Source of the DNA: an uncultured delta proteobacterium
Lineage (GTDB): Bacteria > Desulfobacterota > Binatia > Bin18
DNA length: 64,000 bases
Direction: 5' to 3'
Assembly (NCBI GenBank): GCA_963733195.1
Contig: CAVTCR010000063.1
Coordinates: 22,589-86,588 of the forward strand
Numbering within the stretch: the stretch's first letter is position 1; each line of letters starts with the position of its first letter. Below the pieces are notes generated by a model. That model made no database searches. It saw nothing but the letters and a program-made list of their open reading frames with translations, and was not told the DNA's origin. The position numbers were made by a program, and so were the translations under genes. This document shows positions 13,041-62,497 of this stretch, piece after piece.

Positions 13041-13097
13041 TGGAGAATGGAGAGTTGAAAATTGAGAATTGAAAATGGAGAGTTGAGAATGGAGAAT
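13041..13097. repeat. Heptamer tandem array, 8 units (TGGAGAA TGGAGAG TTGAAAA TTGAGAA TTGAAAA TGGAGAG TTGAGAA TGGAGAA)
   Basis: Read from the sequence. It fills the gap between the four-helix-bundle gene stop and the AlbA_2 gene start. Confidence 0.9.
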
Positions 13098-13459
13098 TAC
13101 GAAGTCTGCTTTGATCCTTTGGATGTTTTGACAATTGAGACCAGCAGCTTGACAAGTTCTTCACTATCAGTGCGGATGGAGGCGAAGCTCTGATTGGCGA
13201 TGTATTCGGATTGATGAAGCAACTCCAGCCAGTACAGTGTCTCGTTAGCTTCTTTGAGAGCGATAGTCATCTTGTGAATAAAGTCCGCTTTGCTTTCTGC
13301 ATGCTCTGCTTCCCGTACCAGCGCACCAATGGCCGTGCCACTGCGCAGTACCTGGTTCGACAGAACAAATTCTTTCTTCTCACTTTGCAAGTGTCTGGCC
13401 AGCTTCACCACCCGCAACGCAAAGGCAAATGACTTATCCCTAATGATGTTCTCCCTCAT
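13097..13459 (-). CDS. Four-helix-bundle protein (TIGR02436 / PF05635, 23S rRNA IVS protein / Avd-like)
   Basis: MRENIIRDKSFAFALRVVKLARHLQSEKKEFVLSNQVLRSGTAIGALVREAEHAESKADFIHKMTIALKEANETLYWLELL matches the family signature as I recall it. The ORF is intact. Confidence 0.9.
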   Translation of the reverse strand: MRENIIRDKSFAFALRVVKLARHLQSEKKEFVLSNQVLRSGTAIGALVREAEHAESKADFIHKMTIALKEANETLYWLELLHQSEYIANQSFASIRTDSEELVKLLVSIVKTSKGSKQTS

Positions 13460-13572
13460 TCTTAATTCCCATTCTTACTCTTCCATTTTTAATTCTCCAT
13501 TTTCCATTTTCACTTCTCCATCTCAACTTTCCACTTCTTCATTCTCAATTCTCCATTCTCAATTTTCCATTA
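13457..13572. repeat. Heptamer tandem array, ~16 units, complementary type (ATTCTCA ATTCTCC ATTTTCC ...)
   Basis: Read from the sequence. It is inverted relative to 13041..13097 and fills the gap between the hsdS stop and the four-helix-bundle gene start. Confidence 0.9.
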
Positions 13573-15265
13573 AACAAGCCTGACTTGTCCGGTGAGTAAC
13601 ACGTGCATCATGCCCTGCTTGAGCTGGCGGGCTTTGGCGAGCTTGGCTTCCAGCGCGTCGATCTCGGCGTCCATGTCGCTCAAGACCTCGGCAATGGCTT
13701 CTTGTTCGGAACGCTAGGCGGGTGAAGGAATTACAAATCTTGCGAGATCTTGCGCCCGAGATTAGGCTGAGCTGCACCACCAGACCATTTTCTATCATCC
13801 GTGCACACAGGTTAGAATTGAAGTAATAACTCAGATAGTCAGTACGGAGACTGGCTGACTTAGGGCGAACAATTACCAGAGAGCTCGCGATTGCACCTTC
13901 GCCGAAATCTGGACCAACGATTCCGAATTTGCCCAACGAACCGCGCAAACAGAACAGTATGTCCCCAGGCTTAAACTTCCCGCCGCCAAGGCGGTCATAG
14001 CTCTCTCTAGTGATGTAGTCTAGTTCACTGCGATTGATATGACCTTCTGCAACGTGGCCTGCGTTAACGAAAGGGACTCCACTACGTGCGAATGACACTG
14101 ATGATGGGTAATTTTTTCCTCGATCCCCATTTTCGAAGACGCAAGTCTCGCTAAGCGTGACATCGATCCTCTGGTACCCCGCCCGGAAGAGAACGTATGC
14201 AAACCGATCTCCTAGAGATAATGCCAGCCATGCATCGGCTCTGGAAGTGCGTGCATTGACGATCGACGTAACCGACGCGGCTAAATACGATATCACCTTC
14301 TTCAAGTGCATATACGCTGAGCCGCTTTCATCCGCATCTGATTCCGTAGGAAGATTAGAATGTACAACTCCGCGTTCACCTAAATGCTCCACAGTGATGA
14401 TCGGAGTGCCGTCCACTAAGCATAGTCGCGTTCTATGTAACGCCGAGCCAAAACGGACCCGTTTCCACATCTGTGATCTTGCCAATCGTTGCTACATTGC
14501 CAATCCTCGGTATCTCTCCTAACTTCGCTGTTTTGTCGCCCAGTGGTTCCACTGAACTCCGATAGCCGTTTCTTCCCGGTGAGCAATTCCTGCATGGCGC
14601 CTTGTTTGAGGTGGCGTTTTTTGGCGATGAGTTGCTCAAGGGATTCAATGAGGGCATCCGCATCGCTCAAGGCTTCGGCAATGGCTTCTTGTTCGGCTTT
14701 GGTGGCGGAAGAGGAATCGGGACTGTCTCGAACTTATCTTTTGGAAGATGTGCGTATGCTTGTCTGCGTGACAAATTCAGCAGAATGCCTTACGATGCCA
14801 GACTGCTGAACGAGTATCCAAGCATCAGGAAATCATGTAGCCACTGCTTTACATAAGCGCTGCATTAGCGCCATTCTGATCAGTAAGCATGTCTATCATC
14901 TGGACTAGCCATATACCGTGCCAGCACGCTCCAACTTTCTGCCTGCCATCGCAACAAGCGACGATCGCCACTTCGCAAGACTGAATATCGTCTGAAGATC
15001 AGCTTCTGGCGTCATCTGATCACGCCAATATCGCTCAGGTCAATACGTCCCCAATTGACATGGCTCTGATCGCCTGAGTAAAGGCTTCGTAATACCAACG
15101 TTATTTTCACGGAATCGAGCATCTTCCTCAACTGATTTAGAACTCGTCGCCGACAGTCGAGACCTCCCAATCCTCCGGAATCACCCCCACCTCGGTCTGC
15201 TTGTAACCCGGAGGAACTAATGGAGAATTGAGAGTTGAGAATTGAGAATTGTTTTCGTTCTTCAT
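13570..15265 (-). pseudogene. hsdS: Type I R-M specificity subunit, heavily disrupted
   Basis: N-terminus is MKNENNSQFSTLNSPLVPPGYKQTEVGVIPEDWEVSTVGDEF*. TRD1 (about 14700-15215) is spread over all three frames with several stops. The central helix is EQEAIAEALSDADALIESLEQLIAKKRHLKQGAMQELLTGKKRL. The distal helix SEQEAIAEVLSDMDAEIDALEAKLAKARQLKQGMMHVLLTGQVRLV* lies out of frame behind a TAG. Confidence 0.75.
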
Positions 15266-15286
15266 TTTCCATTCTCCATTCTCAAT
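15221..15286. repeat. Inverted pair of heptamer arrays with a 12-nt spacer (no cargo)
   Basis: TGGAGAA TTGAGAG TTGAGAA TTGAGAA TTG (15221..15251), spacer ttttcgttcttc, then ATTTTCC ATTCTCC ATTCTCA ATT (15263..15286). It spans the hsdM stop and the hsdS start. Confidence 0.9.
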
Positions 15287-17693
15287 TAAGCGAAAATCCC
15301 ATTTTCGCGAGATGGCGGTTCACTTTCTGTTCCAGCTCGGCCACGCGGCTCGTCTGCTGCGGCAGCGGGGTTTCGTAGCGTTCGGCCAGTTCCTTCACGC
15401 GCTGGGTCAGGGCCTGGCTGATACGGTCCATCTCGCCGTGGATGCGTGCATCGAGTACGGCCAGCCATTTGTCATCCACGACCAACGTCTTGATCTCGGC
15501 CTCGGTGAGTTTGGGATATTGGGCATAGGCTTTCGCATCGAGTGCGGCCTCGGCGTCTTTGAGGCGCTTCTTGAGTTCGGACTCCTGGTCACTGAGCGTT
15601 AGCCAGGCATTTAAGAACCTCGGCTTCCTCTTTGGTCTCCTCATCTTTGGAGAACAGCCCTTTGATCTCCTTTAGGCGTGCGGCGATATTAGCCTTGTTC
15701 ACCTTGTCCAACGCGGAGAACGCACCTTCCTCACCACCGTGTTCTTCTTCCATCTCAGTCAACTGAGCGGTGACGCTTTCCAGCTCGGCCTCCAGCTTCG
15801 TGATGGCTTCTTGTTCTTTGGCAAAGTAGCGAGCGACGATGAGCGGCTTCGGCACGAGATCGCACGCCCAGCCCTTGTCCTTCTCTTTGCCTTTCTTGTC
15901 TTTCTCGATGATACGATAGGTCTCAGCCTTCCACCCATCAGTGGCGATCAGATAGCAGTCGTCCTGCATCGTCTCGGCCCAGTAATCCATCAGGTGCTGA
16001 TAGACATCGTATTCATCGATCAGCGGCTTGCCGCTGTAGTGCGCGAGCAGGTTTTCGGAAAGGCCTTTGATGATGTGTTTGGGGTGACACTCAACCGTTA
16101 GTCCCTTGAGTGCCTTGCGTGCGTCTACGCCAATCGGCAAACAAGGCGTTCATACTATCGGTGAACGTCACAAACTCCGCGATGCTCGTAGATGGTTTGT
16201 TTTAGTTGAGAGTGGAGAATGGATAATTGAGAATAGTGGGCGCGGAGCGGCTGGAAGAGTGCGGATTTGAGTCCAGGGAGAACGGACCAATATTTTTCGA
16301 GTGCATCGATGTCGCGGTTAGGGATGCCGCCGCGCAGGTGGCCTTCGATGTCTTGAATGTCTTCGGCCTCCTGACTGTCGATGTAACGCGGAATGTTGAG
16401 GTTGTATTCGTTCTTCTCGATCTCTGCGAACGGGACCATGCGCGCATATTTGGGAATCTCTACCTGTTTGGTGAAGACATCCACAATCTTGTGAATGTCC
16501 CTCGCACGCAACCGGTTCTTGTTACCGTCCTTCATGTAGCCCGCGCTGGCGTCAATCATAAAAATGCCACGGCGCGTGTGGGCGTCTTCTTTGTCGATGA
16601 CGATGATACAGGCCGGAATGCCAGTGCCGTAAAACAGGTTCGCGGGCAGGCCAATGATGCCCTTGATGTAGCCCTTGCGGATCAAGTTGCGGCGGATGTC
16701 GGCTTCGGCATTGCCACGGAACAACACCCCATGCGGCAGAATGCATGCACCTTTGCCGTGGCTCTTGAGCGAGCGCACGATGTGCAGCAGATAGGCGTAA
16801 TCGCCCTGTTTGCCAGGCGGCACACCGAAGGACTTGAAACGCTCGTGCGGATCGTTGAGCGGATCGACACCGGTGCTCCAGCGCTTATCGCTGAACGGCG
16901 GATTCGCGACTACGTAATCAAAGGTCTTGAGGATGTCGCCATCTTTGAACTTGGGGTCAGCCAGCGAGTTGCCTTGCACGATCAACGCCGTCGGGTTGTT
17001 GTGCAGCACCATATTCATCCGCGCCAGACCGGACGTCGCCGCGTCTTTATCCTGGCCGTACAGCGTGACCTGCGCGTGGGCTTCATCGGCGACTTTCAAC
17101 AACAGCGAGCCGGAACCGCAGGTCGGGTCATAGACGGTGGTATCGTTCGTCGTCTTGGCATCGCGGATGCCGATGATCTGCGCAATGATGCGGCTGACCT
17201 CGGCAGGCGTGTAGAACTGCCCCTTGCTCTTGCCGCTATCCACGGCGAAGTGCTGCATCAGATATTCATAGGCATCGCCGAGAATGTCATCACCGTCTGC
17301 GCGGTTCTTGCTGAAATCGAGCCGCTTATCTTCAAAGATGGCGATGAGGTCTGTTAGTCGCTCCACCATCTCCTTGCCGCTGCCGAGCTTGGTGGCGTCG
17401 TTGAAGTCCGGCATGTCGGACAGCTTGTTGGCATTGGCCAGCGGCGCGATGATCTTCTTGTTGATCTGGTCACCGATGTCAGGTTTGCCCTTGAGCGCGA
17501 CCATGTCCTTGAAGCTGGCGCCCTCGGGAATGGTGATCGGCGCGAAAGGCACGCCGGCATATTTGTCGCTGACATATTTGATGAACAACAGGACCAGCAC
17601 GTAGTCCTTGTATTGGCTGGCATCCATGCCGCCGCGCAGCGCATCGCAGCTCGACCACAGGGACGAGTAGAGTTCCGATTTCTTCAGGGCCAT
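15282..17693 (-). pseudogene. hsdM: Type I R-M methyltransferase subunit with long C-terminal extension, split into 4 frame segments (3 track ORFs plus a short bridging segment)
   Basis: The N6-MTase core is intact (DPTCGSGSLL, NPPF). Then EHAEFVTFTDSMNALFADW, VDARKALKGLTVECHPKH...EEAEVL and NAWLTLSDQESELKK...RHLAKMGFSLN* lie in different frames. Shifts are near 16182, 16130 and 15610 (an extra A in an A-run). Confidence 0.85.
16205..16236. repeat. Short heptamer array inside the hsdM reading frame (GTTGAGA GTGGAGA ATGGATA ATTGAGA)
   Basis: Encodes ...YSQLSILHSQLKQ... on the minus strand and is of the same unit type as the arrays at 13041 and 15221. Confidence 0.6.
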
Positions 17694-18329
17694 AGTGTCG
17701 TTAGATTCCGTTTCTTTGCGTAGTGATGAAGAGTCGCAAAATGCCTGAGATACCTACCAGCCCACGACAAGAATGTCATCGTAAGGTAGTACTTTGGGAT
17801 CAAAGACTCACTGGCAATATTATTGAATTGTCGCTGTGGATCGTGCTCTGGTAAGGCCACCAACATTTCCCCCTTACCAACGATGCTACTGCTTTCGCTC
17901 GGCAAGAAGCAAGGAAAAGACAGCCGTTTTTCTGCGAGGAGAAGAAATAACCGTATGAAATACGTCTGAGAGACGTTTGAGAAAGATCACAGGAGAACCG
18001 CGTCTCTACGGAGATTCAAGTAGACGAGGTTGGCTTCGAGCGTCAAGGAGGATCAGTTCCGGGGTACGCCCCTCGCGTAGCTCTTCGATCTGCTGGCCAA
18101 GCATGGCTGAGGGATGTTCTTGGACAAGAGAAAGGAACGCTTGCGCGTTACATAGCTCAAAGACGAGCGCTTGTAAGGGGCGATATTCATTCTCGCGATC
18201 TTTCTTATTAATTCGGAGAGTGTCTTGATGCCCCATCGGGCCGCGCTTCCCACAGAATCGGAAATCGCAGAAGGTTTTTCATTTTGGTTCTTGATCGATA
18301 AGGAAACGAAGGGCGAGAAGAAACACAAG

Positions 18330-18402
<73 letters not shown>

Positions 18403-18460: not shown

Positions 18461-18509
18461 TATAACAGCGAGGATAATCTAACAGCCACCCGGTCACTTT
18501 GCAAGGGAA

Positions 18510-23809: not shown

Positions 23810-26194
23810 ATGGCGGTGGGGAAGAAACCGCGGTCGGAGGAGCAACCCTTCGGGGGAGAGGTGATTGGGGTCGCTAATATTGCCTTAGCGATCTTTTTTA
23901 CCCTGGCATTCTATTCATATCAGGCTGGTGAGACGAGCAGTAACTCTGTTGGTTTGATCGGTTACCTGCTAGCCGACCTGTTATGTCCGGCTTTTGGCCA
24001 GGCGTGCTATTTATTACCATTATCGCTGCTGTACTTCGCTGGAGTGCTTCTCCACCAGTGGCAGTGTCATGCGTTGATATCTCAATTGCTCTCGTTTGGG
24101 ACTTTCCTTGTTACGACCGCTGCGCTGCTTGCGTTGTGGGGAGGGCAGCGTCCTGTCATCGAGGCCGGTGGTTGGGTCGGTGGGTTTCTCGCTCTGCACT
24201 TGCGCACTGGGCTCAATATGATCGGCACCCATTTACTCCTCGTTCCGGTGTTGCTGATGTCGTTTATGGGAATGACCCGCGTAACCTTGTCCGATACCGG
24301 AGTTGGGATCTTTGCTCAGAGTTATGCCTTGATCATTAAAAGTTATACCCTGCTGAGGCAGCTAGGGGGAGTGTTCAAGTGGTTCGAAGGGCTTCTTCCT
24401 CGCCTTGCCTGGGAACGTCCAGAATTGCCTGACCCTGAGCTTGAGATAGTGCCGACGAAGCGCACGAGTCGGAAAGAATCAGTTACTAAGAAATCATCTC
24501 CAGCCATTCTATTAGAGGAGGAAGAAGAGGAAGCCTCACTACCGCCGATCATTATTACCGAGCCTGCACCATCGCCGATTCCAGTCGCCAAAACCGAACG
24601 CTCAAAGCCAGCGCCGGTCAAGGTATTCAGCGAAGCCGTGACGGCCAATGGAAGACCTTATGTGCTTCCCGCCGTGTCACTGATTGATCCGCCGGTACGT
24701 TTAGCGGTGAAAGTTGATGAAGATGCCTTGCATGCGAGTTCACGTATTCTTGAGAACAAACTTGGAGATTTTGGTGTTGAAGGGAAAGTTGTTGCGGTTC
24801 GTCCTGGGCCGGTGATTACCACGTATGAGTTCGAACCTGCCCCTGGCGTCAAAGTGAACCGTGTGGTGTCATTAGCCGACGATCTCCAGATGGCGTTGCG
24901 TGCGGTGTCCGTGCGTATTCTCGCGCCGATTCCCGGTAAAGCCGTGGTGGGTATAGAGGTTTCTAATCCACGACGTGAGAAAGTCTGTATGCGCGAGATC
25001 GTCGAAAGCCAAGGGTTCCAGCAGTCTGATTCGCCGCTGACGTTGGCACTCGGGAAAGATACGGTGGGAAATCCGGTGGTCGCGGATATCGCGCGTATGC
25101 CGCATCTCCTGGTGGCGGGAGCGACCGGAACTGGGAAATCGGTCTCACTCAACGTGATGATCATGAGTATGCTCTATCGGGCAACTCCGCGTGACGTTCG
25201 CTTCATCATGATCGACCCGAAAATGCTTGAACTTTCCCTCTACGAAGATCTCCCGCATCAGCTTTCGCATGTGATTACCAATCCCAAAGAAGCTGGGGCG
25301 GCACTGCAAGAAGTCGTGCGACGTATGGAGTATCGCTACAAACTCCTCAAAGACAAAGGTGTGAGAAGCATTGCGGCTTACAATCGTGTGCTAGAAGCCG
25401 GACAACCGAACGCCAAGGGTGTCGTGAAGCTAACCGAGATCATCGAGGAAGGTGATGACGATGAAGAGTTGCAAAGTAGATCATCGTCTGCGGTAAAGAG
25501 TGAGCCGTTTGTCCATCAGCGACTACCGTATTTAGTGGTGATTGTGGATGAGCTCGCTGACTTGATGCTGACTGTTGGCCGCGAGATTGAGGAGCCTATT
25601 ACTCGTTTGGCGCAGATGGGTCGTGCCGCAGGAATTCACCTCATCCTGGCAACCCAACGTCCGTCAGTTGATGTCATCACCGGTTTGATCAAAGCAAACT
25701 TTCCTGCCCGTGTGTCATTCCAAGTTTCTTCACGGATAGACTCGCGCACGATTCTTGATGCGATTGGTGCCGAGCGACTCTTGGGCGAAGGCGATATGTT
25801 GTTCCTCCCACCGGGGAGTGCCAAACCACAGCGTATTCATGGTGCCTACATTTCTGAACCGGAAATTCGCAAAGTGGCGACGGCCATCAAGAAACAAGGC
25901 AAACCTGTCTATGATGCGGAGTTTGTTGCGGCACTCGAGAAGGCGCGTAGTAACAAGGGGGCTGATGGCAGTGTCGAAGAAGACGACTACGATGAGATGT
26001 ATGAGCAGGCACGAGAGTTGGTGATGGAGAGTCGTCAAGCGTCTATTTCTTGGCTCCAACGCCGACTGCGGGTTGGCTATAACCGAGCCGCACGTATGAT
26101 CGAACGCATGGAGCGGGAAGGGCTGGTGGCTCCTGCTGCCGAAGCTGGGAAACCCCGCGAGGTCTTGGTGCGGGCGAGTGGGGGAAGAGAATGA
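23810..26194 (+). CDS. ftsK: DNA translocase FtsK
   Basis: N-terminal TM helices, an acidic/proline linker, the motor Walker A (VAGATGTGKSV), and the gamma domain (SISWLQRRLRVGYNRAARMIERME). Confidence 0.95.
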   Translation: MAVGKKPRSEEQPFGGEVIGVANIALAIFFTLAFYSYQAGETSSNSVGLIGYLLADLLCPAFGQACYLLPLSLLYFAGVLLHQWQCHALISQLLSFGTFLVTTAALLALWGGQRPVIEAGGWVGGFLALHLRTGLNMIGTHLLLVPVLLMSFMGMTRVTLSDTGVGIFAQSYALIIKSYTLLRQLGGVFKWFEGLLPRLAWERPELPDPELEIVPTKRTSRKESVTKKSSPAILLEEEEEEASLPPIIITEPAPSPIPVAKTERSKPAPVKVFSEAVTANGRPYVLPAVSLIDPPVRLAVKVDEDALHASSRILENKLGDFGVEGKVVAVRPGPVITTYEFEPAPGVKVNRVVSLADDLQMALRAVSVRILAPIPGKAVVGIEVSNPRREKVCMREIVESQGFQQSDSPLTLALGKDTVGNPVVADIARMPHLLVAGATGTGKSVSLNVMIMSMLYRATPRDVRFIMIDPKMLELSLYEDLPHQLSHVITNPKEAGAALQEVVRRMEYRYKLLKDKGVRSIAAYNRVLEAGQPNAKGVVKLTEIIEEGDDDEELQSRSSSAVKSEPFVHQRLPYLVVIVDELADLMLTVGREIEEPITRLAQMGRAAGIHLILATQRPSVDVITGLIKANFPARVSFQVSSRIDSRTILDAIGAERLLGEGDMLFLPPGSAKPQRIHGAYISEPEIRKVATAIKKQGKPVYDAEFVAALEKARSNKGADGSVEEDDYDEMYEQARELVMESRQASISWLQRRLRVGYNRAARMIERMEREGLVAPAAEAGKPREVLVRASGGRE

Positions 26195-26248
26195 AAAGTA
26201 ATGCAAAATGTAGAATGCTGAATGATGAATGGAAAAATGGTGAGAGAG
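26186..26248. repeat. AATG-phased heptamer array (about 9 units) starting at the ftsK stop codon
   Basis: AATG recurs at 26200, 26207, 26214, 26221 and 26228 (period 7). The ftsK TGA is at 26192..26194. Confidence 0.8.
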
Positions 26249-26279
26249 CTTTTTTTGCCTTTGCGGTGTTCTATACTGC

Positions 26280-26960
26280 ATGACTATGCCAATACGTTTC
26301 TCACGATTAGCCGTTGTCATTTTTCTCTTTTATTCATCGTTCATCGTTCAGCATTCCGCATTTGCTGCTCAAACGGCATCCGTCCAGACCGTCGTGAAAA
26401 AACTCCAGGCGCGATACGATTCGACCACAGGCTTTCATGCTGACTTCAAGCAGGAGGTAGAATCCGCCACACTAGGGCAGAAGGTTGAGGCCCACGGAAA
26501 GGTTTTCTTCAAAAAGCCTGGCCGTATGCGCTGGGAGTTTATCGATCCTGAACAGCTTCTGGTGTCCGATGGGGAATTCTTCTGGTTGTATCAGCCAAAA
26601 GAAAATCAAGTCATCAAAACCCCGTTCGCCCAAGCCTTTTACTCAAATTCCCCTGCTTCGTTTCTCCTAGGAGTCGGGCGGATCACGCAAGATTTTACTC
26701 CCAGCTTGCAAGCCCAGAATGCGAAGACGTACACGCTGCGCTTAACGCCGAAGAAAGATCCCGAAGCGATCGGTTTGCTGGATCTCGAAGTTGACGCGAA
26801 GACGTTTGATATTCTTCAAGCGACGATCATAGATCCCATCGGCAACACCACAAAAGTGCACTTTTCTAATATCGATCGCAAAGGACCGCTGGACGAATCG
26901 CTCTTTCGTTTCACGGTCCCGTCTGGGGTCGATATAGTCGACACTCCATCGCCTTCTTGA
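26280..26960 (+). CDS. lolA: Outer-membrane lipoprotein carrier protein LolA
   Basis: Signal peptide followed by VVKKLQARYDSTTGFHADFKQEV...GKVFFKKPGRMRWEF, the LolA family pattern. Confidence 0.8.
   Translation: MTMPIRFSRLAVVIFLFYSSFIVQHSAFAAQTASVQTVVKKLQARYDSTTGFHADFKQEVESATLGQKVEAHGKVFFKKPGRMRWEFIDPEQLLVSDGEFFWLYQPKENQVIKTPFAQAFYSNSPASFLLGVGRITQDFTPSLQAQNAKTYTLRLTPKKDPEAIGLLDLEVDAKTFDILQATIIDPIGNTTKVHFSNIDRKGPLDESLFRFTVPSGVDIVDTPSPS
26322..26366. repeat. Complementary CATT-phased array, the inverted partner of 26186..26248, inside the lolA signal-peptide codons
   Basis: The reverse complement of 26333..26364 (GCAAATGCGGAATGCTGAACGATGAACGAT) aligns with 26203..26232 (GCAAAATGTAGAATGCTGAATGATGAATGG). 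Confidence 0.8.
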
Positions 26961-26976: not shown

Positions 26977-27025
26977 GAGAAGAGTCCAGAGTCTTAGGGT
27001 CTAGGGGTCAGAATCCGAAAACTAT
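26977..27025. repeat. Heptamer array (GAGAAGA GTCCAGA GTCTTAG GGTCTAG GGGTCAG AATCCGA)
   Basis: Read from the sequence, immediately downstream of the lolA stop. Confidence 0.7.
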
Positions 27026-27057
27026 GGGTAGCCTAAATGACATGTGGCGGGTCTTTT

Positions 27058-27185
27058 CCTCGTTCGCCCTTCGACTTCGCTGCAGCTACGCTCAGGACGA
27101 GCGGGTTGAGCGGTCCGTTCGTGCTGAGTGTAACCCCCAGGGTAAAGCTTGTCCTGAGCTTGTCGAAGGATGAAGCATGAACGAC
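27058..27185. mobile_element. MITE-like nested palindromic element (intergenic)
   Basis: Outer arms are cgttcgcccttcgac and gtcgaaggatgaagcatgaacg. Inner arms are cgctcaggacgagcgg and ccgttcgtgctgag. No ORF. Confidence 0.5.
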
Positions 27186-27279
27186 GGTTGCTACAACTCA
27201 CATGGGAGAACTATAACAAGTCGTTCCTGGACCATAGCGGGGGGTCTCGAGGTCTAGATTCTCAATAGAAACACCGAGT

Positions 27280-27314
27280 CCTCATTGCTCGATACTCATT
27301 ACTCATTACTGTTT
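27280..27314. repeat. Heptamer array (CCTCATT GCTCGAT ACTCATT ACTCATT ACTGTTT)
   Basis: Read from the sequence, immediately upstream of the SDR gene RBS. Confidence 0.75.
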
Positions 27315-27330
27315 GTCGGAGGAGGTTGCC

Positions 27331-29887: not shown

Positions 29888-29928
29888 TGCTGAAGTCTAG
29901 AGGCTGAAGACTAAAGGCTTAAGACTTG
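29887..29928. repeat. Heptamer array (GTGCTGA AGTCTAG AGGCTGA AGACTAA AGGCTTA AGACTTG)
   Basis: Read from the sequence, directly after the malic-enzyme stop. Confidence 0.75.
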
Positions 29929-29930
29929 TG

Positions 29931-29960
29931 AGGGCGACGCAACCGTCGCCCTTATTTTTT
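29931..29960 (+). terminator. Rho-independent terminator
   Basis: Stem AGGGCGACG, loop CAAC, stem CGTCGCCCT, followed by TATTTTTT. Confidence 0.8.
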
Positions 29961-29976
29961 GCGGAGGAAATGAGAG

Positions 29977-30871: not shown

Positions 30872-31101
30872 AGATATCCCTCAACTCTTCCAACAATTCC
30901 TTCGCCTCTTGCAAATCTTTCGTATCGAATCCTTCAGTGAACCAGTTGTAGATCTCTGACAACATCTTGTGAGCTTCTTGTCGTCTTTCCTTGCTGCTGC
31001 CACAGGCGGCGCGAGGCTCATAGACTGCTCGCAGCTCCAGCGACTTCGCTTGTTGCTTGCGCGCAATCTCGATGGCTTTGAGGAAACACGCTCGGCTTCG
31101 C

Positions 31102-31192
31102 CTGGGGGTCGGGGTCAGGGGTGGGGATCGGTTCTTGACTTTTGATTGCTTTTGATCTTGGACTAGACTCTAGACTTTGGACTCTGGACTGG
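31102..31192. repeat. 13-unit heptamer array inside the TPR gene (…GACTTTT GATTGCT TTTGATC TTGGACT AGACTCT AGACTTT GGACTCT GGACTGG)
   Basis: Read from the sequence. It encodes the low-complexity linker between ELYRLKGELTL and EAEACFLKAIEIARKQQAKS. Confidence 0.75.
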
Positions 31193-32666
31193 GCGAGCGT
31201 AAGCTCGCCTTTCAGCCGATACAGCTCGGCCTCGTAGAAACGCTCCCCAGTTTTGTCCACCACAGCCAGCGCTTCGGCCAGCACAGCTGAGCCCTTCCTC
31301 TGCCTGCCCTACTTTCCCATACGCCTCGGCCAGCAGGGCAAGACAATACGGCCGAAACAGCTCTGCTCCCGTGGCCCGACAGGCAGCCAGGCCCTGGCTG
31401 CATCTGAGCAATGCCTTCTTCTCCCTGGCCTTGCTCGGCCAGCGCCCAGCCCCGCACGATCGTCCCATGCGCCAACAAGAACGGAAACCCCTGCTCGGTT
31501 GAGAGTGTTATTAGCTGCCTCTGCCCGCTCTCGGGCTGCCTGCCCTCCCGGCGGAACTGATGGAGCACAGGCAGCACAGATCAAGGCATAAGCTAAGCTG
31601 TAGGGATGAGACAGCTCCTGGGCCAAGGTCGAGCGCCTCGTGGACTTCTCTTGAGGGCTTGGTCCGGATAGCCAAGATGCCACAGGGCATAGGCCGCATA
31701 GCGATAGGCAAACCACTCCAGGATCCTGTCCCATAGAAGAGAGACAAAGGAGTGGTGCTTCTGAGGGTCATAGAGGGCAATCCCTTGCTCTAAATGCTGC
31801 TCGGGCTAGAGCAAACTCTCCCAGGAAGATACAAGGTCTACCCCAGCGCATGGTGGGCCTCCACGAGGAGAGCTGGGTCTTGCACACTTTGGGCCAAGCT
31901 GCAAGCAGCTGCTCTCGCCAGCTCACGGGCCGTCTGTAACTCTCGCCCGCGTATAGATAAAACACCGACAGGCCAAACAGCACCGGGAAGAGCTGAGGAG
32001 TTTCCCCTACCTGCTGGCACAGCTCGCGCGCCCGGGTGTAAGTTTTTTCCACTTCTGGGGCCGCAAAGCCCTTGGTGGCGATCAGCGGCGCACCCAGGGC
32101 GAGTTGCAGGGTGAGTTCTTGCTGGACGCGCTCGGGAGTGTCGGGCAGGGTCTTGAGCAACTCCAGCCCCTTGGTGAGGTGACTGATCGCTTCCACATAG
32201 GCCGAGCGCTGGCTGGCTCGCTGACCTGCTCTGCTGCCAATAGGGAAGGGCCTGCGCGATGAGACCCGCTTCGGTGTAGTGATGCGCCACTAATTCTGGT
32301 TGGGTCTCTTTGGTCTCTGGAAACCGCTCCTCGAAGACCTGAGCTATCTGGTGGTGATACTGCTGACGTTTGCTTTTGAGCAGCGATTGATATGCGGTCT
32401 CTTGCACCAGCGCATGCTTGAAGAGATAGGTCGCCTGCGGTGGCAGCCCGCGCTGATAGAGAAGCTCCGCCGCGACTAACTTGCTTAACTCTTGCTGCAA
32501 CGCTGCCTCGGTGAGCGGTGAGACCGCACTCAATAACTCGTAGGTTAGTTCGCGTCCCACCACCGCCCCTTGTTGCGCTACCTCTTTGGCGGTCCCTAGC
32601 CGATCCAGCCGGGCCATGAGCGCATCTTGCAGGGTGGAAGGAATCCCTAACGATACGGCGCACATG

Positions 32667-32720
32667 CTGCCCTCTCAGTTTTCCTTCCTGTCCCCCGTCC
32701 CCTGTAACCTGTTCCCTCGG
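32667..32720. repeat. Heptamer array inside the AAA/TPR junction (CCTGTCC CCCGTCC CCTGTAA CCTGTTC CCTCGGA)
   Basis: Read from the sequence. It coincides with the frame break between ...FVEELTKIVVES and ...[17 protein letters not shown]. Confidence 0.75.
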
Positions 32721-33935: not shown

Positions 33936-34244
33936 ACCACTTGTGAGATGGCGATGATAATTTCTAATCCCGCTCGCACGGCACGTTGCGCATCGTCTTC
34001 ATGGGCGACTGGATAACCGAAGTAGACCAGCAACCCATCCCCGAGATGCTGGGCAATGTGCCCTTCGTACCGCCGGATCACCTCCGTGCAGGTCTCTTGG
34101 TAGGCGCGCACCACTTCGCGCAATTCTTCTGGGTCAAGTTGCGCGGACAGTGCAGTCGAGCCCACGAAATCACAGAACATCACGGTCAATTGCCGCCGCT
34201 CCGCGGCGTTCAGTTGAGAACTGACAACTGTTGGGGACTGGGGG

Positions 34245-34279
34245 GAACTTGGAACCTGGAACTCGGAACTTGAAACTGG
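34245..34279. repeat. Heptamer array in the N-terminal linker of the cyclase gene (GAACTTG GAACCTG GAACTCG GAACTTG AAACTGG)
   Basis: Read from the sequence. It is translated in frame as ...[11 protein letters not shown].... Confidence 0.75.
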
Positions 34280-34676
34280 CGAAGCGCCAGTCCAGACCAG
34301 AAAGCGTCCGTCTTCATCGGTTGCGAGTCGCTTGGCACCGATGAGTTCCTCCTTGAGGTCTTCGAGATACTCGTCATCCAGGGTAAACCGCCGCTTTAAG
34401 CCCCGGTACGAGACCCGTTTCTCGCGCTGCAATAGGTCTTGGACCTGAGAGAGTACTTCATCGAACGTCATGGAGATTCTCCACTTATTCGTTTCGGATA
34501 CCTGAATAGTGAGCTATTCGTTCATCTTTCCTTATGGTCCTATTATTCTCACGACTGCCGGTCCGGCGCGAGAGTTGTCAGCGCTATGGATAGCGTGCTG
34601 TCTCTCAGCGGTGAGCGCATCGTACACAAGCAGATGGCAGGCAACTATAGCGGTTTTCAGTGAGACCCAGGCAATG

Positions 34677-43611: not shown

Positions 43612-43661
43612 TACGTAGACTTGCACCTTCGACCGTCAACCTTACCAGTTCCCTCGTCGTT

Positions 43662-43738
43662 CACTTTGCATTTCCCATTTTCCATTCTTAACTCTCCATT
43701 TTCCATTCTTCCTTCTTCCTTCTTCCCCTCCCCCTCCT
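43662..43738. repeat. 11-unit heptamer array (CATTTCC CATTTTC CATTCTT AACTCTC CATTTTC CATTCTT CCTTCTT ...)
   Basis: Read from the sequence. Intergenic, upstream of the hydrolase gene. Confidence 0.85.
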
Positions 43739-44570: not shown

Positions 44571-44596
44571 GGATTTGGGCTCCAACCCCCAAATCC
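44571..44596. repeat. 9-bp-stem hairpin GGATTTGGG-ctccaacc-CCCAAATCC built from heptamer-type units
   Basis: Read from the sequence, between the hydrolase stop and the LLM gene start. It is followed by TAAATCC TCAGGAG, with no T-run. Confidence 0.6.
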
Positions 44597-44620
44597 TAAA
44601 TCCTCAGGAGCAAAGCGACC

Positions 44621-45912: not shown

Positions 45913-46607
<695 letters not shown>

Positions 46608-47034: not shown

Positions 47035-47731
47035 ATGCGAAAAAATTATGTGTTTTGGCTTCTCTGGGGAGCTGCACTACTGGGAATTTCGGGCTGCGGT
47101 ATGTCTGAAACTAAACGAAGGGGGACTATCGTCGGGGCAGCACTCGGCGCAACAGCACTCGGCGTCGGCGGAGTTGTGATAGCTGACGAATGTCGGCGAT
47201 GGGAATCGTCAAAGTGAAAGGTGGTATGGGGCTGGGATCGGGATCCTGGCCGGTGCAGTAATCGGAGGCGCGCTGGGGTATTGGCTGACGGATGAACCTG
47301 AGGTTTCACCGCCGCCGCCGCCACCGCCGCCACCACCACCGCCGCCACCACCGCCACCGCCACCTGCAATTACCTCGGGAACCACAATCCGGTTGCGTGG
47401 GGTGAATTTTGACTACGATAAAGCAAACATCAAGGCGGATTCTGCCGCAGTGCTCGATGAGGCCGCCCGACTGCTGAATGACAATCCGGACGTGCAGGTG
47501 AGGATTGTCGGTCATACTGATTCCATAGGGTCCGATGAGTACAACCAACGCCTCTCGGAACGGCGAGCACAAGCAGTGAAAGCCTACTTGGTTTCCAAAG
47601 GGATCGCTGCGAGTCGCTTAACGACCGAAGGTCGAGGGGAACAGGAACCTATTGCCGACAACACGAGGAATGGCAGAGACAATCCTGAGGGCCGGGCGAT
47701 GAACCGCCGGGCTGACTTGAAGGTCGAATAA
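47035..47731 (+). pseudogene. OmpA-domain lipoprotein, copy 2, with the same split architecture
   Basis: MRKNYVFWLLWGAALLGISGC...GVGGVVIADE... stops at 47217. The OmpA frame (…WYGAGIGILAGAVIGGALGYWLTDEPEVS-P19-…RGVNFDYDK…) again opens after TGATAG without a start codon. Confidence 0.7.
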
Positions 47732-58003: not shown

Positions 58004-58013
58004 GGAGTCCTGT

Positions 58014-58226: not shown

Positions 58227-58238
58227 AGAGAGACCTGG

Positions 58239-60569: not shown

Positions 60570-61812
60570 TGAGGAGAAAATTCGCTCGACCCTACGAGGC
60601 GTATTAAGTGACGAAGGGTATCGAGTGCTCGATACCGACGGTACTCCTAATGTGTTGGCTATGGTAGCAGTACAGCGACCACGGCTCGTACTCCTTGATA
60701 TTTGGATGCCACAGGTTGATGGGATTGAATTACTCGAACGCTTGAAGGCGCAAGAGCCCGAACTCCCAGTGATTGTGATGTCGGGGCATGGCACGATTGA
60801 GACCGCCGTGCGTGCGACGAAGCTTGGCGCTGCTGATTTCATTGAGAAACCTTTCTCCTTGGAGACGCTCTTGCGTTCCGTACATCGCGCGACTGGACGC
60901 TCGACTGCTGAGAACCTTACAGAAAATGGTGCGACAACCGTACTCGAAGAAGCCCACACGATCTCGTACCGACAGCGACAGAGACGTGCGCGAACGATCA
61001 AGCAGAGTGTCGTCATTCACGGGCATGGACTTCACTCCGGTGTGCGTACCGGGGTCATTCTCCATCCCTTGCCGCCAGGGAGCGGAATTGCGTTCAGTGC
61101 GATCTCCGCACCGGATGTGATGATCCCAGCGACGGTAGAGTATGTTGACTCAACGGGATATGCCACTAGTCTTTGTCGCGATGGGGTAACAGCCCAGACG
61201 ATCGAACATCTGATGTCGGCCCTCCATTCCTACGGCCTCACCAACGTGTTGGTAAAAATGCAGGGGGAAATCCCAATTCTTGACGGGTCGGCTCTGGAGT
61301 TCTGCCAACTGCTTGAAGGTGCCGGAGTTGTCGAGCAAGCGGAGAAGATTGAACCCGTGGGTATTGATAAGACGTACCGTGTAGGTGACCCACAGTCAGG
61401 AAAATTTTTGCAGATCGAACCTGCCAAATATTTTGCGGTGCACTATACGCTGAAATATCCAGAGCCTGTTGGATGTCAGGAGTACTCTTATGTTCACCGT
61501 GATATGCAGAGTTACCGCGAGGAGATCGCTCCCGCGCGGACCTTTGGCTTTGTGAAAGACGTCCAGATGCTTGAGCAAATGGGACTCGCCAATGGGGGAC
61601 GGCTGAACAATTGCGTCCTCATTGGTGAACAGGGAGTGATTAACCCACCGTTACGTTTCCCTGATGAGCTCGTCCGCCATAAGATTCTGGACTTGATGGG
61701 AGATCTCTATCTGCTCGGTCGTCCGATCCATGGCAAGGTCACAGCCAGTTGCACAGGACATACAGACAACATTGCTCTGGTCCGTGCAATTCGAGAAGGG
61801 ATGAAGCTCTGA
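60541..61812 (+). CDS. lpxC: Receiver domain fused to UDP-3-O-acyl-GlcNAc deacetylase (REC-LpxC)
   Basis: NtrC/NtrX-type REC (ILVVDDEEKIR, LVLLDIWMPQVDG, VIVMSGHG, FIEKPF) is continuous with LpxC (TIKQSVVIHGHGLHSG, TIEHLMSAL, ARTFGF, HKILDLMGDL, CTGHTDN). There is no stop or frame change between the two domains. Confidence 0.85.
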   Translation: MEETILVVDDEEKIRSTLRGVLSDEGYRVLDTDGTPNVLAMVAVQRPRLVLLDIWMPQVDGIELLERLKAQEPELPVIVMSGHGTIETAVRATKLGAADFIEKPFSLETLLRSVHRATGRSTAENLTENGATTVLEEAHTISYRQRQRRARTIKQSVVIHGHGLHSGVRTGVILHPLPPGSGIAFSAISAPDVMIPATVEYVDSTGYATSLCRDGVTAQTIEHLMSALHSYGLTNVLVKMQGEIPILDGSALEFCQLLEGAGVVEQAEKIEPVGIDKTYRVGDPQSGKFLQIEPAKYFAVHYTLKYPEPVGCQEYSYVHRDMQSYREEIAPARTFGFVKDVQMLEQMGLANGGRLNNCVLIGEQGVINPPLRFPDELVRHKILDLMGDLYLLGRPIHGKVTASCTGHTDNIALVRAIREGMKL

Positions 61813-61882
61813 GTGCTTATCCGAATAACCAGTGAAAGGAGTTAGGTCTTGTAATTATGCACTTCAGTCAAAAGCGGTGCTT

Positions 61883-62497
61883 CTAATCGGTGACTTCTAA
61901 ACGTGACCCCATGAGTTCTTCCAGCAGGCTCTTAGCCTCTTGCAAATCTTTCGTATCAAACCCTTCGGTGAACCAGTTATAGATCTCAGATAACGTGGTG
62001 CGTGCTGCGTGGTGCTTGCCTTGTCGCTGCCACAGGCGGGCAAGGCTCACTGTCGCGCGCAACTCTAGCGACTTCGCTTGTTGTTGCGAGCAATCTCAAT
62101 GGCTTTGTGAAAACATGCTTCGGCTTCGGCTGCTGGGAGTTGGGAGTTGGGATTTAGGATTTGGAATTTTTGACTTTTGCGCTTTGCCTTTTGTCTTTTG
62201 ACTTTCCTGCTGAAGCGTCAGCTCGCCTTTCAGCCGATACAGCTCAGCCTCCCAGAAATGCTCCCCAGTTCTATCCACTGTAGCCAACGCCTCGGCCAGT
62301 GCAGTCAACCCTTCCTCTATCTGTCCGATTTCTCCGTACGTCTCTGCCAGGAGCGCGAGGAAGTATGACTGAAATAGCTCTGCTCCCATAGCTCGGCAGA
62401 GGGCAAGACCTTGGTGTATGCGTGCCAGCCCTTCTTTTTCCTTTCCTTGTCTGGCTAATGCCCAACCTCGTAGGACAGTCGCCCACGCCCGGCTCAT
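61883..62497 (-). pseudogene. 5'-truncated, frameshifted paralog of the TPR tail of the cyclase/AAA/TPR gene
   Basis: SRAWATVLRGWALARQGKEKEGLARIHQGL...EAELYRLKGELTLQQ, then [14 protein letters not shown], then [58 protein letters not shown], in three frames. Confidence 0.7.
62118..62208. repeat. 13-unit heptamer array (GCTGGGA GTTGGGA GTTGGGA TTTAGGA TTTGGAA TTTTTGA CTTTTGC GCTTTGC CTTTTGT CTTTTGA ...)
   Basis: Read from the sequence. It occupies the same position in the paralog as array 31102..31192 but has different unit sequences. Confidence 0.85.

Follow-up and report, generated by a model that had tools for sequence, protein, structure and literature searches.

The window, by which we mean the whole 64-kb stretch of DNA analyzed, carries heptanucleotide tandem arrays around a PF05635 gene and the hsdM and hsdS genes of a type I restriction-modification operon, at the ftsK|lolA junction, beside malic-enzyme and hydrolase genes, and within cyclase genes. 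The features considered here are as follows:

13037..13105, minus strand: 3′ arm of the PF05635 cassette (13037-13576), reverse complement of its 5′ arm (inverted repeats I1-I14)
13097..13459, minus strand: four-helix-bundle gene, 120 aa, PF05635 23S_rRNA_IVP / TIGR02436 / Avd-like (Pfam, NCBIfam, PDB)
13457..13576, minus strand: 5′ arm of the cassette, ~16 degenerate units AATGGAG/AATTGAG on the sense (minus) strand
15216..15291, minus strand: ORF-less bare hairpin between hsdM and hsdS, formed by a pair of inverted heptamer arrays lying back to back (I20, I25)
16200..16238, minus strand: array within the hsdM coding sequence, pyrimidine-rich orientation, encoding YSQLSILHSQL; inverted partner of 15258-15289 (I12)
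26199..26236, plus strand: 5′ arm past the ftsK stop, AATGCAA AATGTAG AATGCTG AATGATG... (I19)
26237..26320, plus strand: loop with a T-run, a promoter-like TATACT, and the lolA start codon
26321..26365, plus strand: 3′ arm within the LolA signal-peptide codons (FYSSFIVQHSAF)
26977..27015, plus strand: weak AGAGTCY array past the lolA stop
27279..27316, plus strand: unpaired CTCATTA array upstream of the ribosome-binding site of an SDR/FabI-like gene
29889..29931, plus strand: GCTGAAG ACTAAAG array, period 7/14, between the malic-enzyme stop and an intrinsic terminator
31102..31194, minus strand: composite array (GGGGTC run, CTTTTGA, GACTCTR) in the C-terminal linker of a frameshift-broken cyclase/AAA_16/TPR gene
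32685..32718, minus strand: CCCCTGT array in a linker of the same broken cyclase/AAA_16/TPR gene
34241..34280, minus strand: GGAACTT array in the N-terminal linker of the same broken cyclase/AAA_16/TPR gene, translated in frame (13 residues)
43659..43735, plus strand: unpaired array of the cassette-arm unit type (reverse complement AATGGAR), ~55 nt upstream of an alpha/beta-hydrolase gene
44579..44607, plus strand: short AAATCCT array between the hydrolase stop and the start of a luciferase-like gene
61991..62021, minus strand: weak GTGGTGC array within the coding sequence of a paralogous cyclase/TPR gene
62125..62207, minus strand: array drifting from GGGAGTT to CTTTTGA, at the paralog's linker position equivalent to 31102-31194

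These arrays are a real, dense, and non-random family. Using a threshold of at least 15 of 21 matches at lag 7, a lag-autocorrelation scan returned 17 period-7 segments in the window, compared to 0.45 in second-order Markov shuffles, and a stricter lag-7 threshold returned 7 compared to 0. The other lags from 4 to 13 and lag 15 gave 0-7 segments each in the same scan, and the 11 segments at lag 14 were the same arrays as at lag 7. Tandem Repeats Finder reported period 7 (or 14/21) at 13041-13098, 13457-13571, 15219-15251, 15258-15287, 16208-16234, 26213-26231, 26333-26350, 27281-27310, 29889-29926, 31163-31190, 34244-34277, 43665-43726, and 62134-62205. The original prediction of dispersed period-7 arrays, in excess over shuffled sequence when scanned, was thus confirmed in the window. 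Nearly all of its positions were recovered, including 32685-32718 and 44579-44607. The exceptions were 26977, where an array is present but weak, contains indels, and falls below both thresholds; 31102, which is a period-6 GGGGTC run abutting a period-7 array at 31160; and 18403, which is not confirmed as an array, being a stretch rich in purines whose 7-periodicity is vague at best. The drifting consensus within arrays and the peptides of spurious ORFs (FSILNSQFSI, MENGE...) are both real, and the arrays are indeed not CRISPRs, with no matching family in Rfam either. Several inverted pairs had also been described, correctly, but only 7 of the 17 arrays have a significant inverted partner.

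Most arrays had been placed exactly at gene ends or starts. This holds in part, but those at 16200, 26321, 31160, 32685, 34241, and 62125 fall inside coding sequence, and because four of them (31160, 32685, 34241, and 62125) sit in linkers of cyclase genes, some of the claimed gene ends are ORF breaks. Broken ORFs account for part of the gene-boundary bias, and translation runs through several arrays. The reading frame shifts at or near the 32685..32718 array and changes across the 62125..62207 array in the cyclase paralog; the broken cyclase genes also contain frameshifts away from arrays. Overall, the arrays in the window occupy weakly constrained sequence, at intergenic junctions, in one signal peptide, and in linkers between protein domains.

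The most informative feature is the four-helix-bundle gene between the first array pair, which was absent from the original prediction. It matches Pfam PF05635 (3e-26), NCBIfam TIGR02436 (3e-30), and PDB 2RLD (3e-41), the closest solved structure, with 5 chains in the deposition, and its protein has thousands of homologs at 75-92% identity. The 5′ arm is purine-rich, contains 9 ATGs and stops in all three frames, and reaches the start codon of the gene. The 3′ arm is pyrimidine-rich on the sense strand and overlaps the stop codon, and the ATG of an AlbA_2/HATPase_c_4 gene (13035) lies 2 nt past its end. Both the minimum-free-energy and centroid structures predicted for the cassette pair the two arms (z = -2.5).

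This layout recurs across many phyla: in 77 of 80 homologous PF05635 loci, a period-7 array lay no more than 250 nt from the ends of the ORF. Together, the 80 loci (252 kb) contained 216 lag-7 arrays, compared to 4-21 at other lags. Their arms span ~42 nt; the upstream arm typically stops just short of the start codon (median distance, 1 nt), the downstream arm overlaps the stop codon, and 57 of 79 upstream arms carry stops in all three frames. Units of one arm differed from the reverse complement of the other by 1.56 mismatches vs. 2.38 in permuted pairings, better than all 200 permutations. Inverted period-7 arms with unrelated units were present in all seven distant plasmid homologs. Across 389 locus pairs, homology between genomes stops inside the arrays; an alignment of Okeania and Dapis agrees, and the upstream array differs in length between these two. 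The sense strand was more stable than the antisense strand at 46 loci vs. 23 (p = 0.003), a modest bias. A PF05635 gene in a two-armed loop is a discrete cassette across many phyla, and the arrays of the AATKGAG sub-family, which form the arms of this shared cassette, may plausibly have the link to a mobile process that had been suggested earlier.

At the hsdM|hsdS junction, we found three states: empty, bare hairpin (the state in the window), and full cassette. In the bare hairpin, the TGA stop of hsdM falls in the 5′ arm, as does an ATG from which an ORF runs in frame through the loop and 3′ arm into the hsdS region (MKNENNSQFSTLNSPLVPPGYKQTEVG). Its predicted fold reaches z = -3.3 on one strand, and in the window the antisense strand of the operon gives the more stable fold.

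A similar layout occurs at ftsK|lolA, where the 5′ arm holds many stops and ATGs, the 3′ arm has no stop in any frame of the sense strand, and the loop stretch is conserved in relatives. Minimum-free-energy predictions include the stem in 11 of 15 relatives. Units have turned over completely while the arrays kept their place and the arms their complementarity: the LolA tree intermixes two unit classes, and a change of class always involves both arms. With only ~110 nt between the arms, however, recombination could carry the two along together and mimic covariation. The sense strand was the more stable in 12 of 14 lolA loci, but this may reflect base composition because loci without arrays show the same bias.

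Period-7 arrays are a genome-wide trait of the Candidatus Binatia lineage, whose relatives carried 20 arrays in 107 kb (~0.19 per kb), compared to 11 in 417 kb (~0.026 per kb) in unrelated bacteria. Array position is conserved among relatives as unit sequence turns over, and arrays are also gained and lost. Relative L007 has a clear array orthologous to the weak one at 26977..27015, L001 has one at the position orthologous to 27279..27316, and both L001 and L002 lack the 29900 array.

Heptamer arrays have been described as TAACTGA in Beggiatoaceae, Cyanobacteria, and Bacteroidetes (PMC4679880), as GGGAATC in Xanthomonas and GGGGAYT in Nostoc (PMC4692102), and as GGACCGG and MTYCTGA elements in Geobacter metallireducens (PMC2700814). 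The cyanobacterial STRR heptamers (Calothrix/Nostoc) were a fair analogy: like the window arrays, these and other known arrays are tandem 7-nt units, mostly intergenic and dense in certain lineages, that often end beside start codons, occur in translatable orientation within ORFs, keep their position while length and sequence vary between relatives, and occasionally form inverted pairs. Being degenerate and paired, however, does not set the window arrays apart as had been claimed, because degenerate, heterogeneous, and occasionally inverted arrays were already described in Xanthomonas, Nostoc, Beggiatoaceae, and Geobacter (PMC4692102, PMC4679880, PMC2700814). They differ in that a single genome carries many different unit types instead of being dominated by one, and in coming from a new lineage, Binatia.

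The cassette resembles 23S rRNA intervening sequences that carry an S23p/PF05635 ORF (Leptospira, Coxiella), in which the ORF also lies in the loop of a long terminal-inverted-repeat stem. In Coxiella, 3-4 tandem GACAGAT heptamers of strain-variable copy number lie just upstream of the ORF, the 28-bp terminal stem is cut by RNase III in mid-stem, and mobility has long been suspected (PMC4990558). By contrast, the cassette lies in a protein-coding operon rather than inside 23S rRNA, and both of its arms are long heptamer arrays. PF05635 proteins are also homologous to the four-helix-bundle DGR accessory protein Avd (PMC10053308), but no reverse transcriptase, template repeat, or variable repeat adjoins the window's gene.

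Correia/CREE, ERIC, and REP-type elements are short, ORF-less inverted repeats that lie at gene junctions, are transcribed along with the genes, and form hairpins, and some Correia elements are RNase III targets that alter mRNA stability. These families have conserved sequence, and Correia elements have terminal inverted repeats and a target duplication. Compared by description, the window arrays instead conserve only period and arm complementarity, and their arms are internally repetitive.

We somewhat favor reading the arrays as two-armed junction modules, grown by slippage, with a transcript stem for processing or coupling. The first of the arms is purine-rich, with ATGs, often GGAG, and stops (in two or three of three frames in the window); the second is its stop-poor reverse complement. 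Where such a module lies between two genes, the first arm terminates the upstream ORF, and the downstream ORF starts at that arm's end or in the loop and can continue through the second. Without a gene in the loop, the module is a bare hairpin; with a PF05635 gene, it is a cassette. Arrays would grow and shrink by whole-unit slippage, and the arms would be expected to pair in the transcript as a long stem. By analogy with the 23S rRNA intervening sequence, a precedent of the same layout, this stem may be an RNase III-type processing or insulating site, or alternatively a translational-coupling structure. A period of 7 may be favored since, being coprime to 3, it would let a stop arm and an open arm work in any reading frame, sparing genes at or in which the module sits; this argument, however, fits periods of 4, 5, or 8 equally well. 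The model leaves most arrays uncovered because 10 of 17 lack an inverted partner and have units only weakly related to each other. Most simply, these unpaired arrays would be by-products of the same slippage-prone process or half-modules.

The arrays could instead be functionless products of lineage-specific 7-nt replication slippage that survive under weak constraint, with inverted pairs arising by template switching at quasi-palindromes. This is an unlikely account. A mutational preference for 7-nt slippage by the polymerase was proposed (Mrazek 2007, as cited in PMC4692102), and the weakly constrained sites, heterogeneous drifting units, absence of the 29900 array in relatives L001 and L002, and Okeania/Dapis length difference are all consistent with it. 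Yet it leaves unaccounted for the near-universal, exactly placed inverted arms at PF05635 genes of many phyla, the persistence of position and complementarity at ftsK|lolA, and the stop-rich/stop-poor orientation rule. Rather improbable, in our view, is that the units are tandem sites for a single-strand nucleic-acid-binding protein with a 7-nt footprint (cold-shock proteins, S1, or a PF05635 pentamer) acting post-transcriptionally near start codons. According to MacGregor 2015 (PMC4679880), most TAACTGA arrays stop 1 nt short of a start codon, and each heptamer is bound by one molecule of B. subtilis CspB, which prefers T-rich heptamers; the pyrimidine arms in the window are T-rich (TTCTCCA, TTTTCCA). 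Moreover, a Nostoc preprint reports that deleting heptamer repeats affects reporter expression, and period rather than sequence is conserved around PF05635 genes. However, units vary extremely in sequence, even inside a single genome, some arrays are located past stop codons and within ORFs, and we found one PF05635 gene in the 64-kb window and none in 107 kb of array-carrying Binatia relatives.

It is very unlikely that the arrays are contingency loci, in which gain or loss of one unit shifts frame or promoter/UTR spacing and turns genes on or off. The frame changes at 32685 and 62125 fit this idea, as does the heptanucleotide phase variation of neuO and the H. influenzae hmw promoters, where unit number alters frame or expression. 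But those repeats are perfect and serve single contingency genes, whereas the window arrays are dispersed, sometimes paired, and degenerate, and imperfect repeats slip poorly. In addition, the broken genes have frameshifts outside arrays, three sampled contigs sharing a LolA protein have identical arrays, and housekeeping junctions like ftsK|lolA would be unlikely contingency loci. We give the least credence to the original suggestion of transcription terminators or attenuators, even though several arrays lie just past stop codons and paired ones form predicted hairpins. The arrays themselves are no intrinsic terminators. Their stems are A/U-rich, long, and imperfect, without a G+C-rich stem and U-tract; a consensus scan placed a canonical intrinsic terminator at 29928-29955, right past the 29900 array rather than on it, and found none coinciding with an array; and the hairpins and cassettes lie between genes of one restriction-modification operon that need co-expression.

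The window arrays are a fresh instance of bacterial heptamer arrays, a phenomenon already known, if unexplained. Neither the two-armed stop/restart layout nor its tie to PF05635 was mentioned in the heptamer-array literature examined, and what is new here is the inverted stop/restart pairs, the PF05635 cassette with period-7 arms, and the three-state hsdM|hsdS junction.

By scanning the window with lag autocorrelation and calling a segment at ≥15 of 21 matches, we detected 17 lag-7 segments that together cover 758 nt. By chance, only 0.45 such segments would be expected, as estimated from second-order Markov shuffles. The other periods (lags 4–13 and 15) each yielded 0–7 segments, and the 11 segments at lag 14 were the identical arrays recovered at lag 7. 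At a stricter threshold, 7 lag-7 segments persisted in the window vs. 0 in the shuffles. Tandem Repeats Finder also reported period-7 (or 14/21) arrays at nearly all of the coordinates named in the original prediction. The dense, non-random period-7 arrays claimed there were thus recovered by the autocorrelation and tandem-repeat scans it had proposed, run here on the window, and the array feature is real, non-random, and more structured than was first recognized. The description of a drifting consensus in each array was also borne out, as units can be read directly (e.g., at 62125: GCTGGGA GTTGGGA GTTGGGA TTTAGGA TTTGGAA TTTTTGA CTTTTGC). Among the listed positions, 18403 proved to be only a purine-rich stretch, the array at 26977 is present but weak, and 31102 is a period-6 run that adjoins a period-7 array. 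Several arrays do form inverted pairs, but a significant inverted partner was found for only 7 of the 17. The units of unlinked window arrays showed a weak excess of relatedness (32 vs. 19 pairs within 2 mismatches), which is too small to make the arrays one sequence family.

The original prediction also placed most arrays at gene ends or starts. This did not hold for several, which were found inside coding sequence:

16200–16238, array in hsdM, encoding YSQLSILHSQL
26321–26365, array in the LolA signal peptide, encoding its hydrophobic core
34241, 32685, and 31102–31194, arrays in inter-domain linkers, all of one large minus-strand gene
62125–62207, array in a paralog of this cyclase/AAA_16 gene, at the equivalent linker position

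The large minus-strand gene has guanylate-cyclase and AAA_16 domain matches and is broken by several frameshifts. Single-base frameshifts were seen in accessory genes at 8769–11598, 13559–17693, 29970–30871, 30900–34471, and 61900–62300, affecting hsdM, hsdS, probably hsdR, an SDR, and two paralogous cyclase/AAA_16/TPR genes whose 1-nt indels differ between the copies. By contrast, ftsK, lolA, and the genes for RNase J and malic enzyme are unbroken. The split accessory genes are either real pseudogenes or local assembly indels.

Other repeats were also noted in the window. Two intergenic short inverted-repeat elements (27040–27190 and 39843–39958), one of them flanked by heptamer arrays on both sides, would, on translation, give motifs such as PFVLS..LSKDE and VILSEAKRS; the elements resemble MITE-like repeats widespread among environmental bacteria. 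Two neighboring ORF regions contain (CCG/CCA)n proline-coding repeats (46187–46249 and 47307–47364) and share a near-identical 40-nt segment (46351–46390 and 47475–47514); they are probably tandem paralogs with Pro-rich linkers. Finally, a 12-nt tandem repeat, TTTTCCCCGAAC, occurs in three copies at 11860–11904, inside the 3′ end of an AlbA_2/HATPase_c_4 gene, and encodes GKVRGKVRGK.

The window is chromosomal, encoding RNase J, FtsK, LolA, and malic enzyme as well as a type I restriction-modification island that adjoins tRNA-Ala. This tRNA gene (CGC anticodon, 18329–18402) marks the edge of the island, and tRNA gene edges are typical integration sites of islands. The host appears to be Candidatus Binatia, as the named LolA homologs come from “Candidatus Binatia” or “Deltaproteobacteria” MAGs. 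An exact-protein look-up of the window LolA and HsdM returned no record, and a first contig scan of genomes with LolA alone returned no relative; relatives were reached via protein homologs and their contigs and via a metagenome scan. Their syntenic contigs (61–88% LolA identity) contained 20 lag-7 arrays in 107 kb, with 3–6 arrays at lags 6, 9, and 12. The LolA loci of other bacteria (n = 73) contained 11 lag-7 arrays in 417 kb, 3 of which came from one further Binatia fragment. Because array density is high in the Binatia relatives (0.19 per kb) compared to other bacteria (0.026 per kb), it is a property of the lineage, throughout which arrays are found. When gene calls were set against arrays, the arrays of the relatives were either intergenic or within the LolA signal peptide, and orthologous intergenic sites carried arrays of different unit sequence.

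One inverted pair in the window encloses a gene:

13097–13459, minus strand, four-helix-bundle ORF of 120 aa, PF05635 (Pfam 3e-26) / TIGR02436

The closest solved structure to its product is 2RLD, which was deposited with 5 chains and probably comes from Bacteroides thetaiotaomicron. The family is related both to Avd, the accessory protein of diversity-generating retroelements (PMC10053308), and to ORFs within 23S rRNA intervening sequences (IVSs; PMC4990558). On the sense strand, the upstream arm is a purine-rich AATGGAG/AATTGAG array that reaches the ORF start codon, has stops in all three frames, and contains nine ATGs. The downstream arm, the reverse complement of this array, overlaps the ORF stop codon and reaches to 2 nt 5′ of the next gene’s ATG. 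Inverted repeats I1–I14 join the two arms, and in both the minimum-free-energy and centroid structures of a 556-nt transcript, the arms are paired around the ORF (−162.5 kcal/mol, z = −2.5). This cassette is sited between hsdS and an AlbA_2 gene, with hsdM and hsdR also among its neighbors. The idea that every array flanks such a gene was rejected, as we found only one PF05635 gene in the window and none in the 107 kb of Binatia relatives.

Homologs of the four-helix-bundle protein number in the thousands at 75–92% identity. The contigs carrying close homologs are mostly very short (0.5–2 kb), as might be expected if assemblies break at the arrays on either side or at multi-copy cassettes. We scanned species-representative genomes and collected 80 PF05635 loci (252 kb) from many lineages, including Nitrospira, Desulfobacteraceae, Chloroflexi, Blastocatellia, Cyanobacteria, many Bacteroidota, Pirellulaceae, Leptospiraceae, Omnitrophota, and Patescibacteria. 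These loci contained 216 lag-7 arrays vs. 4–21 at each other lag from 4 to 12. An array lay ≤250 nt from the ORF ends in 77 of the 80, with arrays concentrated in two zones, up to 100 nt before the start and up to 150 nt after the stop. The median arm was about 42 nt (six units) long. Upstream arms ended at a median of 1 nt 5′ of the start codon, and downstream arms began at a median position 4 nt ahead of the stop codon’s end. The two arms were also complementary: upstream units differed from the reverse complement of the downstream unit by 1.56 mismatches, compared to 2.38 ± 0.12 when permuted, and the true pairing beat all 200 permuted pairings. Stops in all three frames were present in 57 of 79 upstream arms. 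Within the 60 nt 5′ of the start, only 14 of 46 loci in Bacteroidota and 1 of 8 in Cyanobacteria had an SD-like core (GGAG, GAGG, or AGGA), compared to 17 of 25 in the remaining phyla. The arm units may follow the translation-initiation signals of their hosts, or the pattern may simply reflect G+C content.

Array units at PF05635 loci and in distant plasmid homologs
AATKGAG: Nitrospira, a Desulfobacteraceae MAG, and the window
AATKGAT: Cyanobacteria
AATKGTT: many Bacteroidota
AATTRTG and AGTKGAR: other lineages
GTCGGAG: Nostoc punctiforme plasmid homolog
GGAAAGN, about 40 units: Treponema plasmid homolog
CTGGTCA, 13 units: Euhalothece plasmid homolog
TTAGTGA, 15 units: Bernardetia plasmid homolog
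AGTAAAA: Anabaena plasmid homolog
AATTCAA: N. flagelliforme plasmid homolog
TAATTAGGAATGAG: Monoglobus plasmid homolog

All seven distant homologs on annotated plasmids (45–52% identity) had inverted period-7 arms with unrelated units, indicating that the period is conserved and the sequence is not. In an all-against-all blastn of the PF05635 loci (389 pairs), ORF-spanning homology stopped a median of 23 nt 5′ of the start and about 10–40 nt past the stop, with end points within the arrays. Only about 7% of the pairs had homology >150 nt beyond. An Okeania/Dapis alignment likewise broke within the downstream array. Because homology ends inside the arrays, array-ORF-array is a discrete cassette common to unrelated genomes and spread over phyla. 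Type I restriction-modification neighborhoods like that of the window surrounded 18 of the 80 loci. Phage carriage was considered and rejected, as the viral collection held only 2 relatives of the cassette gene.

Paired arrays also occur without an ORF. At 15216–15291, between hsdM and hsdS, two arrays of one unit type lie back to back and form a bare hairpin; 14 such hairpins were found in 12 of the 80 loci. The hsdM|hsdS junction exists in three states. It is empty in one Nitrospira locus (L089), where the hsdM stop overlaps the hsdS ATG, contains a hairpin similar to that of the window in another (L088), and contains a full cassette in a third locus (L115), after a matching hsdM C-terminus (...KMGFSFN*). 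No target-site duplication was seen in comparing empty and filled junctions. In the window and L088, the hsdM stop and an ATG both come from the first arm, with the restart ATG in its last unit or just after; the window stop is the TGA within a unit AATTGAG. The hsdS frame then crosses the loop and second arm in frame (window peptide MKNENNSQFSTLNSPLVPPGYKQTEVG) and is likewise open in L088 (peptide MSHSQLSTFNSQLIPAGYKQTEVG), showing that a downstream reading frame can cross the second arm. The hairpin thus provides both the end of one gene and the restart of the next. Frameshifts in the window hsdS region lie further downstream of the hairpin.

The ftsK|lolA pair is the same layout with a large loop, and here too, along the direction in which the flanking genes run, the stop-rich arm comes before the stop-poor one. 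The first arm follows the ftsK stop and is rich in stops and ATGs, the 85–110-nt loop contains a conserved T-run, a TATACT box, and the lolA start codon, and the second arm has no stops and is translated as the signal-peptide core. LolA signal peptides of relatives contain 7-residue periodic peptides (e.g., TGYWLLATGYWLLA and SSFIIHHSSF), a periodicity that marks three heptamers being translated in each of the three frames. The arms were paired in the predicted minimum-free-energy fold of 11 of 15 Binatia loci. Units fell into two classes, GAATGAT/ATCATTC and CAGTAGY/CTACTGG; both arms were always of one class, and the classes were interleaved on the mature-LolA tree. In the sister taxa L009 (GAATGCG) and L010 (GAATGAT), both arms differed. 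Paired arrays thus co-vary, with the caveat that close spacing lets recombination move both arms. A further relative (L176, 5793–5980) contains four different arrays within 190 nt 3′ of lolA (AATGATG, CGCAGGC, GCTACTG, and CCTGACT), indicating that both unit classes coexist in one genome.

Other features of this locus were also observed. In one relative (L001, 1–8050), HNH, PglZ, and BrxL (BREX) genes lie directly 5′ of lolA in ftsK’s usual place; the 5′ arm is missing and the translated arm is kept. The T-run and TATACT box lie 3–9 nt 5′ of the lolA ATG in the window (26250–26290) and in L001, L002, L005, and L007–L011, which suggests a leaderless or very short-leader lolA transcript starting within the array-stem loop. 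In the predicted folds of most relatives, the last ftsK codons (26150–26195) pair with the first mature-LolA codons (26375–26410), lengthening the array stem outwards; this could be chance complementarity of two conserved coding stretches.

Because the upstream arrays of Okeania and Dapis are of unequal length and Coxiella strains differ in heptamer copy number (PMC4990558), arrays likely change by slippage of whole units. The arms would pair in transcripts, and the stem could then be a site of RNase III-type processing or insulation, or it could serve to couple translation. A precedent is the Coxiella IVS, where the cut falls in mid-stem, at the first heptamer (PMC4990558). A period of 7 may be favored because it is coprime to 3: repeats of a stop-bearing unit therefore close every frame within 21 nt, and those of a stop-free unit leave every frame open. 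A G-U asymmetry test of RNA vs. DNA pairing and strand choice gave a modest signal at the cassettes. At lolA, the signal was also present in array-less loci, and the preferred strand of the window’s bare hairpin is antisense to the operon. As this strand asymmetry is modest and partly confounded by base composition, we only infer an RNA-level role for the arms. Ten unpaired arrays with diverse units fall outside this explanation and may be slippage by-products or half-modules.

The arrays were compared with several known elements. The STRR1–3 units of heterocystous cyanobacteria are CCCCAGT, TTGGTCA, and CAACAGT; the nearest window unit is CCCCTGT at 32685, but none is identical and the host belongs to Binatia. 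With 23S rRNA IVS elements, the cassette shares a PF05635/S23p ORF, terminal inverted repeats, and a predicted long stem around the ORF. However, it lies between hsdS and AlbA_2 rather than in a 23S rRNA helix, and an Rfam search found no rRNA in the window. At gathering thresholds, Rfam reported tRNA-Ala only, leaving the arrays without a known RNA family. In a diversity-generating retroelement, Avd adjoins a reverse transcriptase and template/variable repeats, but the cassette’s neighbors are restriction-modification and AlbA_2 genes. A MITE or transposon-derived element would have conserved terminal inverted repeats, a target-site duplication, and a related autonomous transposase. Here, the arms differ in sequence between lineages, and neither target duplication nor transposase was seen, although homology between loci does end at the arrays. 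CRISPR repeats are 24–48 nt with unique spacers between them, and we agree with the original prediction that contiguous 7-nt units are not CRISPRs. Its suggestion of termination structures was rejected. Intrinsic terminators have a G+C-rich stem followed by a U-tract, and no array was called as one; the canonical terminator at 29928–29955 is separate, lying 3′ of the array at 29900 and not coinciding with it.

The window arrays belong to the bacterial tandem heptamer SSR arrays, being head-to-tail 7-nt units above chance and above other periods and a lineage trait mostly outside constrained coding sequence. Such arrays have been described in Beggiatoaceae, Cyanobacteria, and Bacteroidetes (PMC4679880), Xanthomonas and Nostoc (PMC4692102), Geobacter (PMC2700814), and Nostoc promoters (bioRxiv 10.1101/2022.06.06.494920), and a 2007 finding, as cited in PMC4692102, is that heptameric SSRs are over-represented in many bacteria. 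The described arrays are mostly intergenic, lineage-specific, start-codon-adjacent, translatable when reversed, and occasionally inverted, with proposed roles in polymerase slippage, G-quadruplexes, or binding by cold-shock proteins, S1, or CsrA (PMC4679880, PMC4692102, PMC2700814, bioRxiv 10.1101/2022.06.06.494920). Among the open-access papers covered, only that on the Coxiella IVS ties heptamers to a PF05635 ORF, and in one species (PMC4990558). We found no open-access paper linking PF05635 genes generally to flanking heptamer arrays; a prior description is possible, but neither the two-armed stop/restart module nor the general PF05635 cassette seems to have been reported as a variant in that literature. 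The window thus adds a new lineage to a known phenomenon and shows a familiar kind of repeat with an anatomy that is new and testable and with a putative mechanism.

A broader reading is speculative, and we consider it rather unlikely. PF05635 genes flanked by inverted heptamer arrays would be an unrecognized, widespread, mobile, frame-neutral junction element, with the bare hairpin as its ORF-less form and the protein as a trans-acting partner or mobility factor. This element would be the common origin of 23S rRNA IVSs and of the heptamer excess (STRR and the like) in Cyanobacteria, Bacteroidota, Xanthomonas, Binatia, and others.

Heptamer repeats have been reported since STRR and are over-represented in many genomes, yet we know of no established mechanism or function. 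The window extends this phenomenon to an uncultured phylum-level lineage and provides an anatomy: at gene junctions, a stop-rich arm and a complementary stop-poor one; at a single junction, three states of occupancy (empty, bare hairpin, and cassette); and a near-universal tie to PF05635, an Avd-related family encoded within 23S rRNA IVSs. In practical terms, the arrays create spurious ORFs and N-terminal extensions (here, HsdS and the signal peptide of LolA), and metagenome assemblies may break at them. A descriptive oddity thus becomes a set of testable hypotheses, namely RNA processing or translational coupling, frame-independent insertion, and a candidate partner protein, that could be tested in culturable hosts such as Bacteroides, Nostoc, or Xanthomonas.
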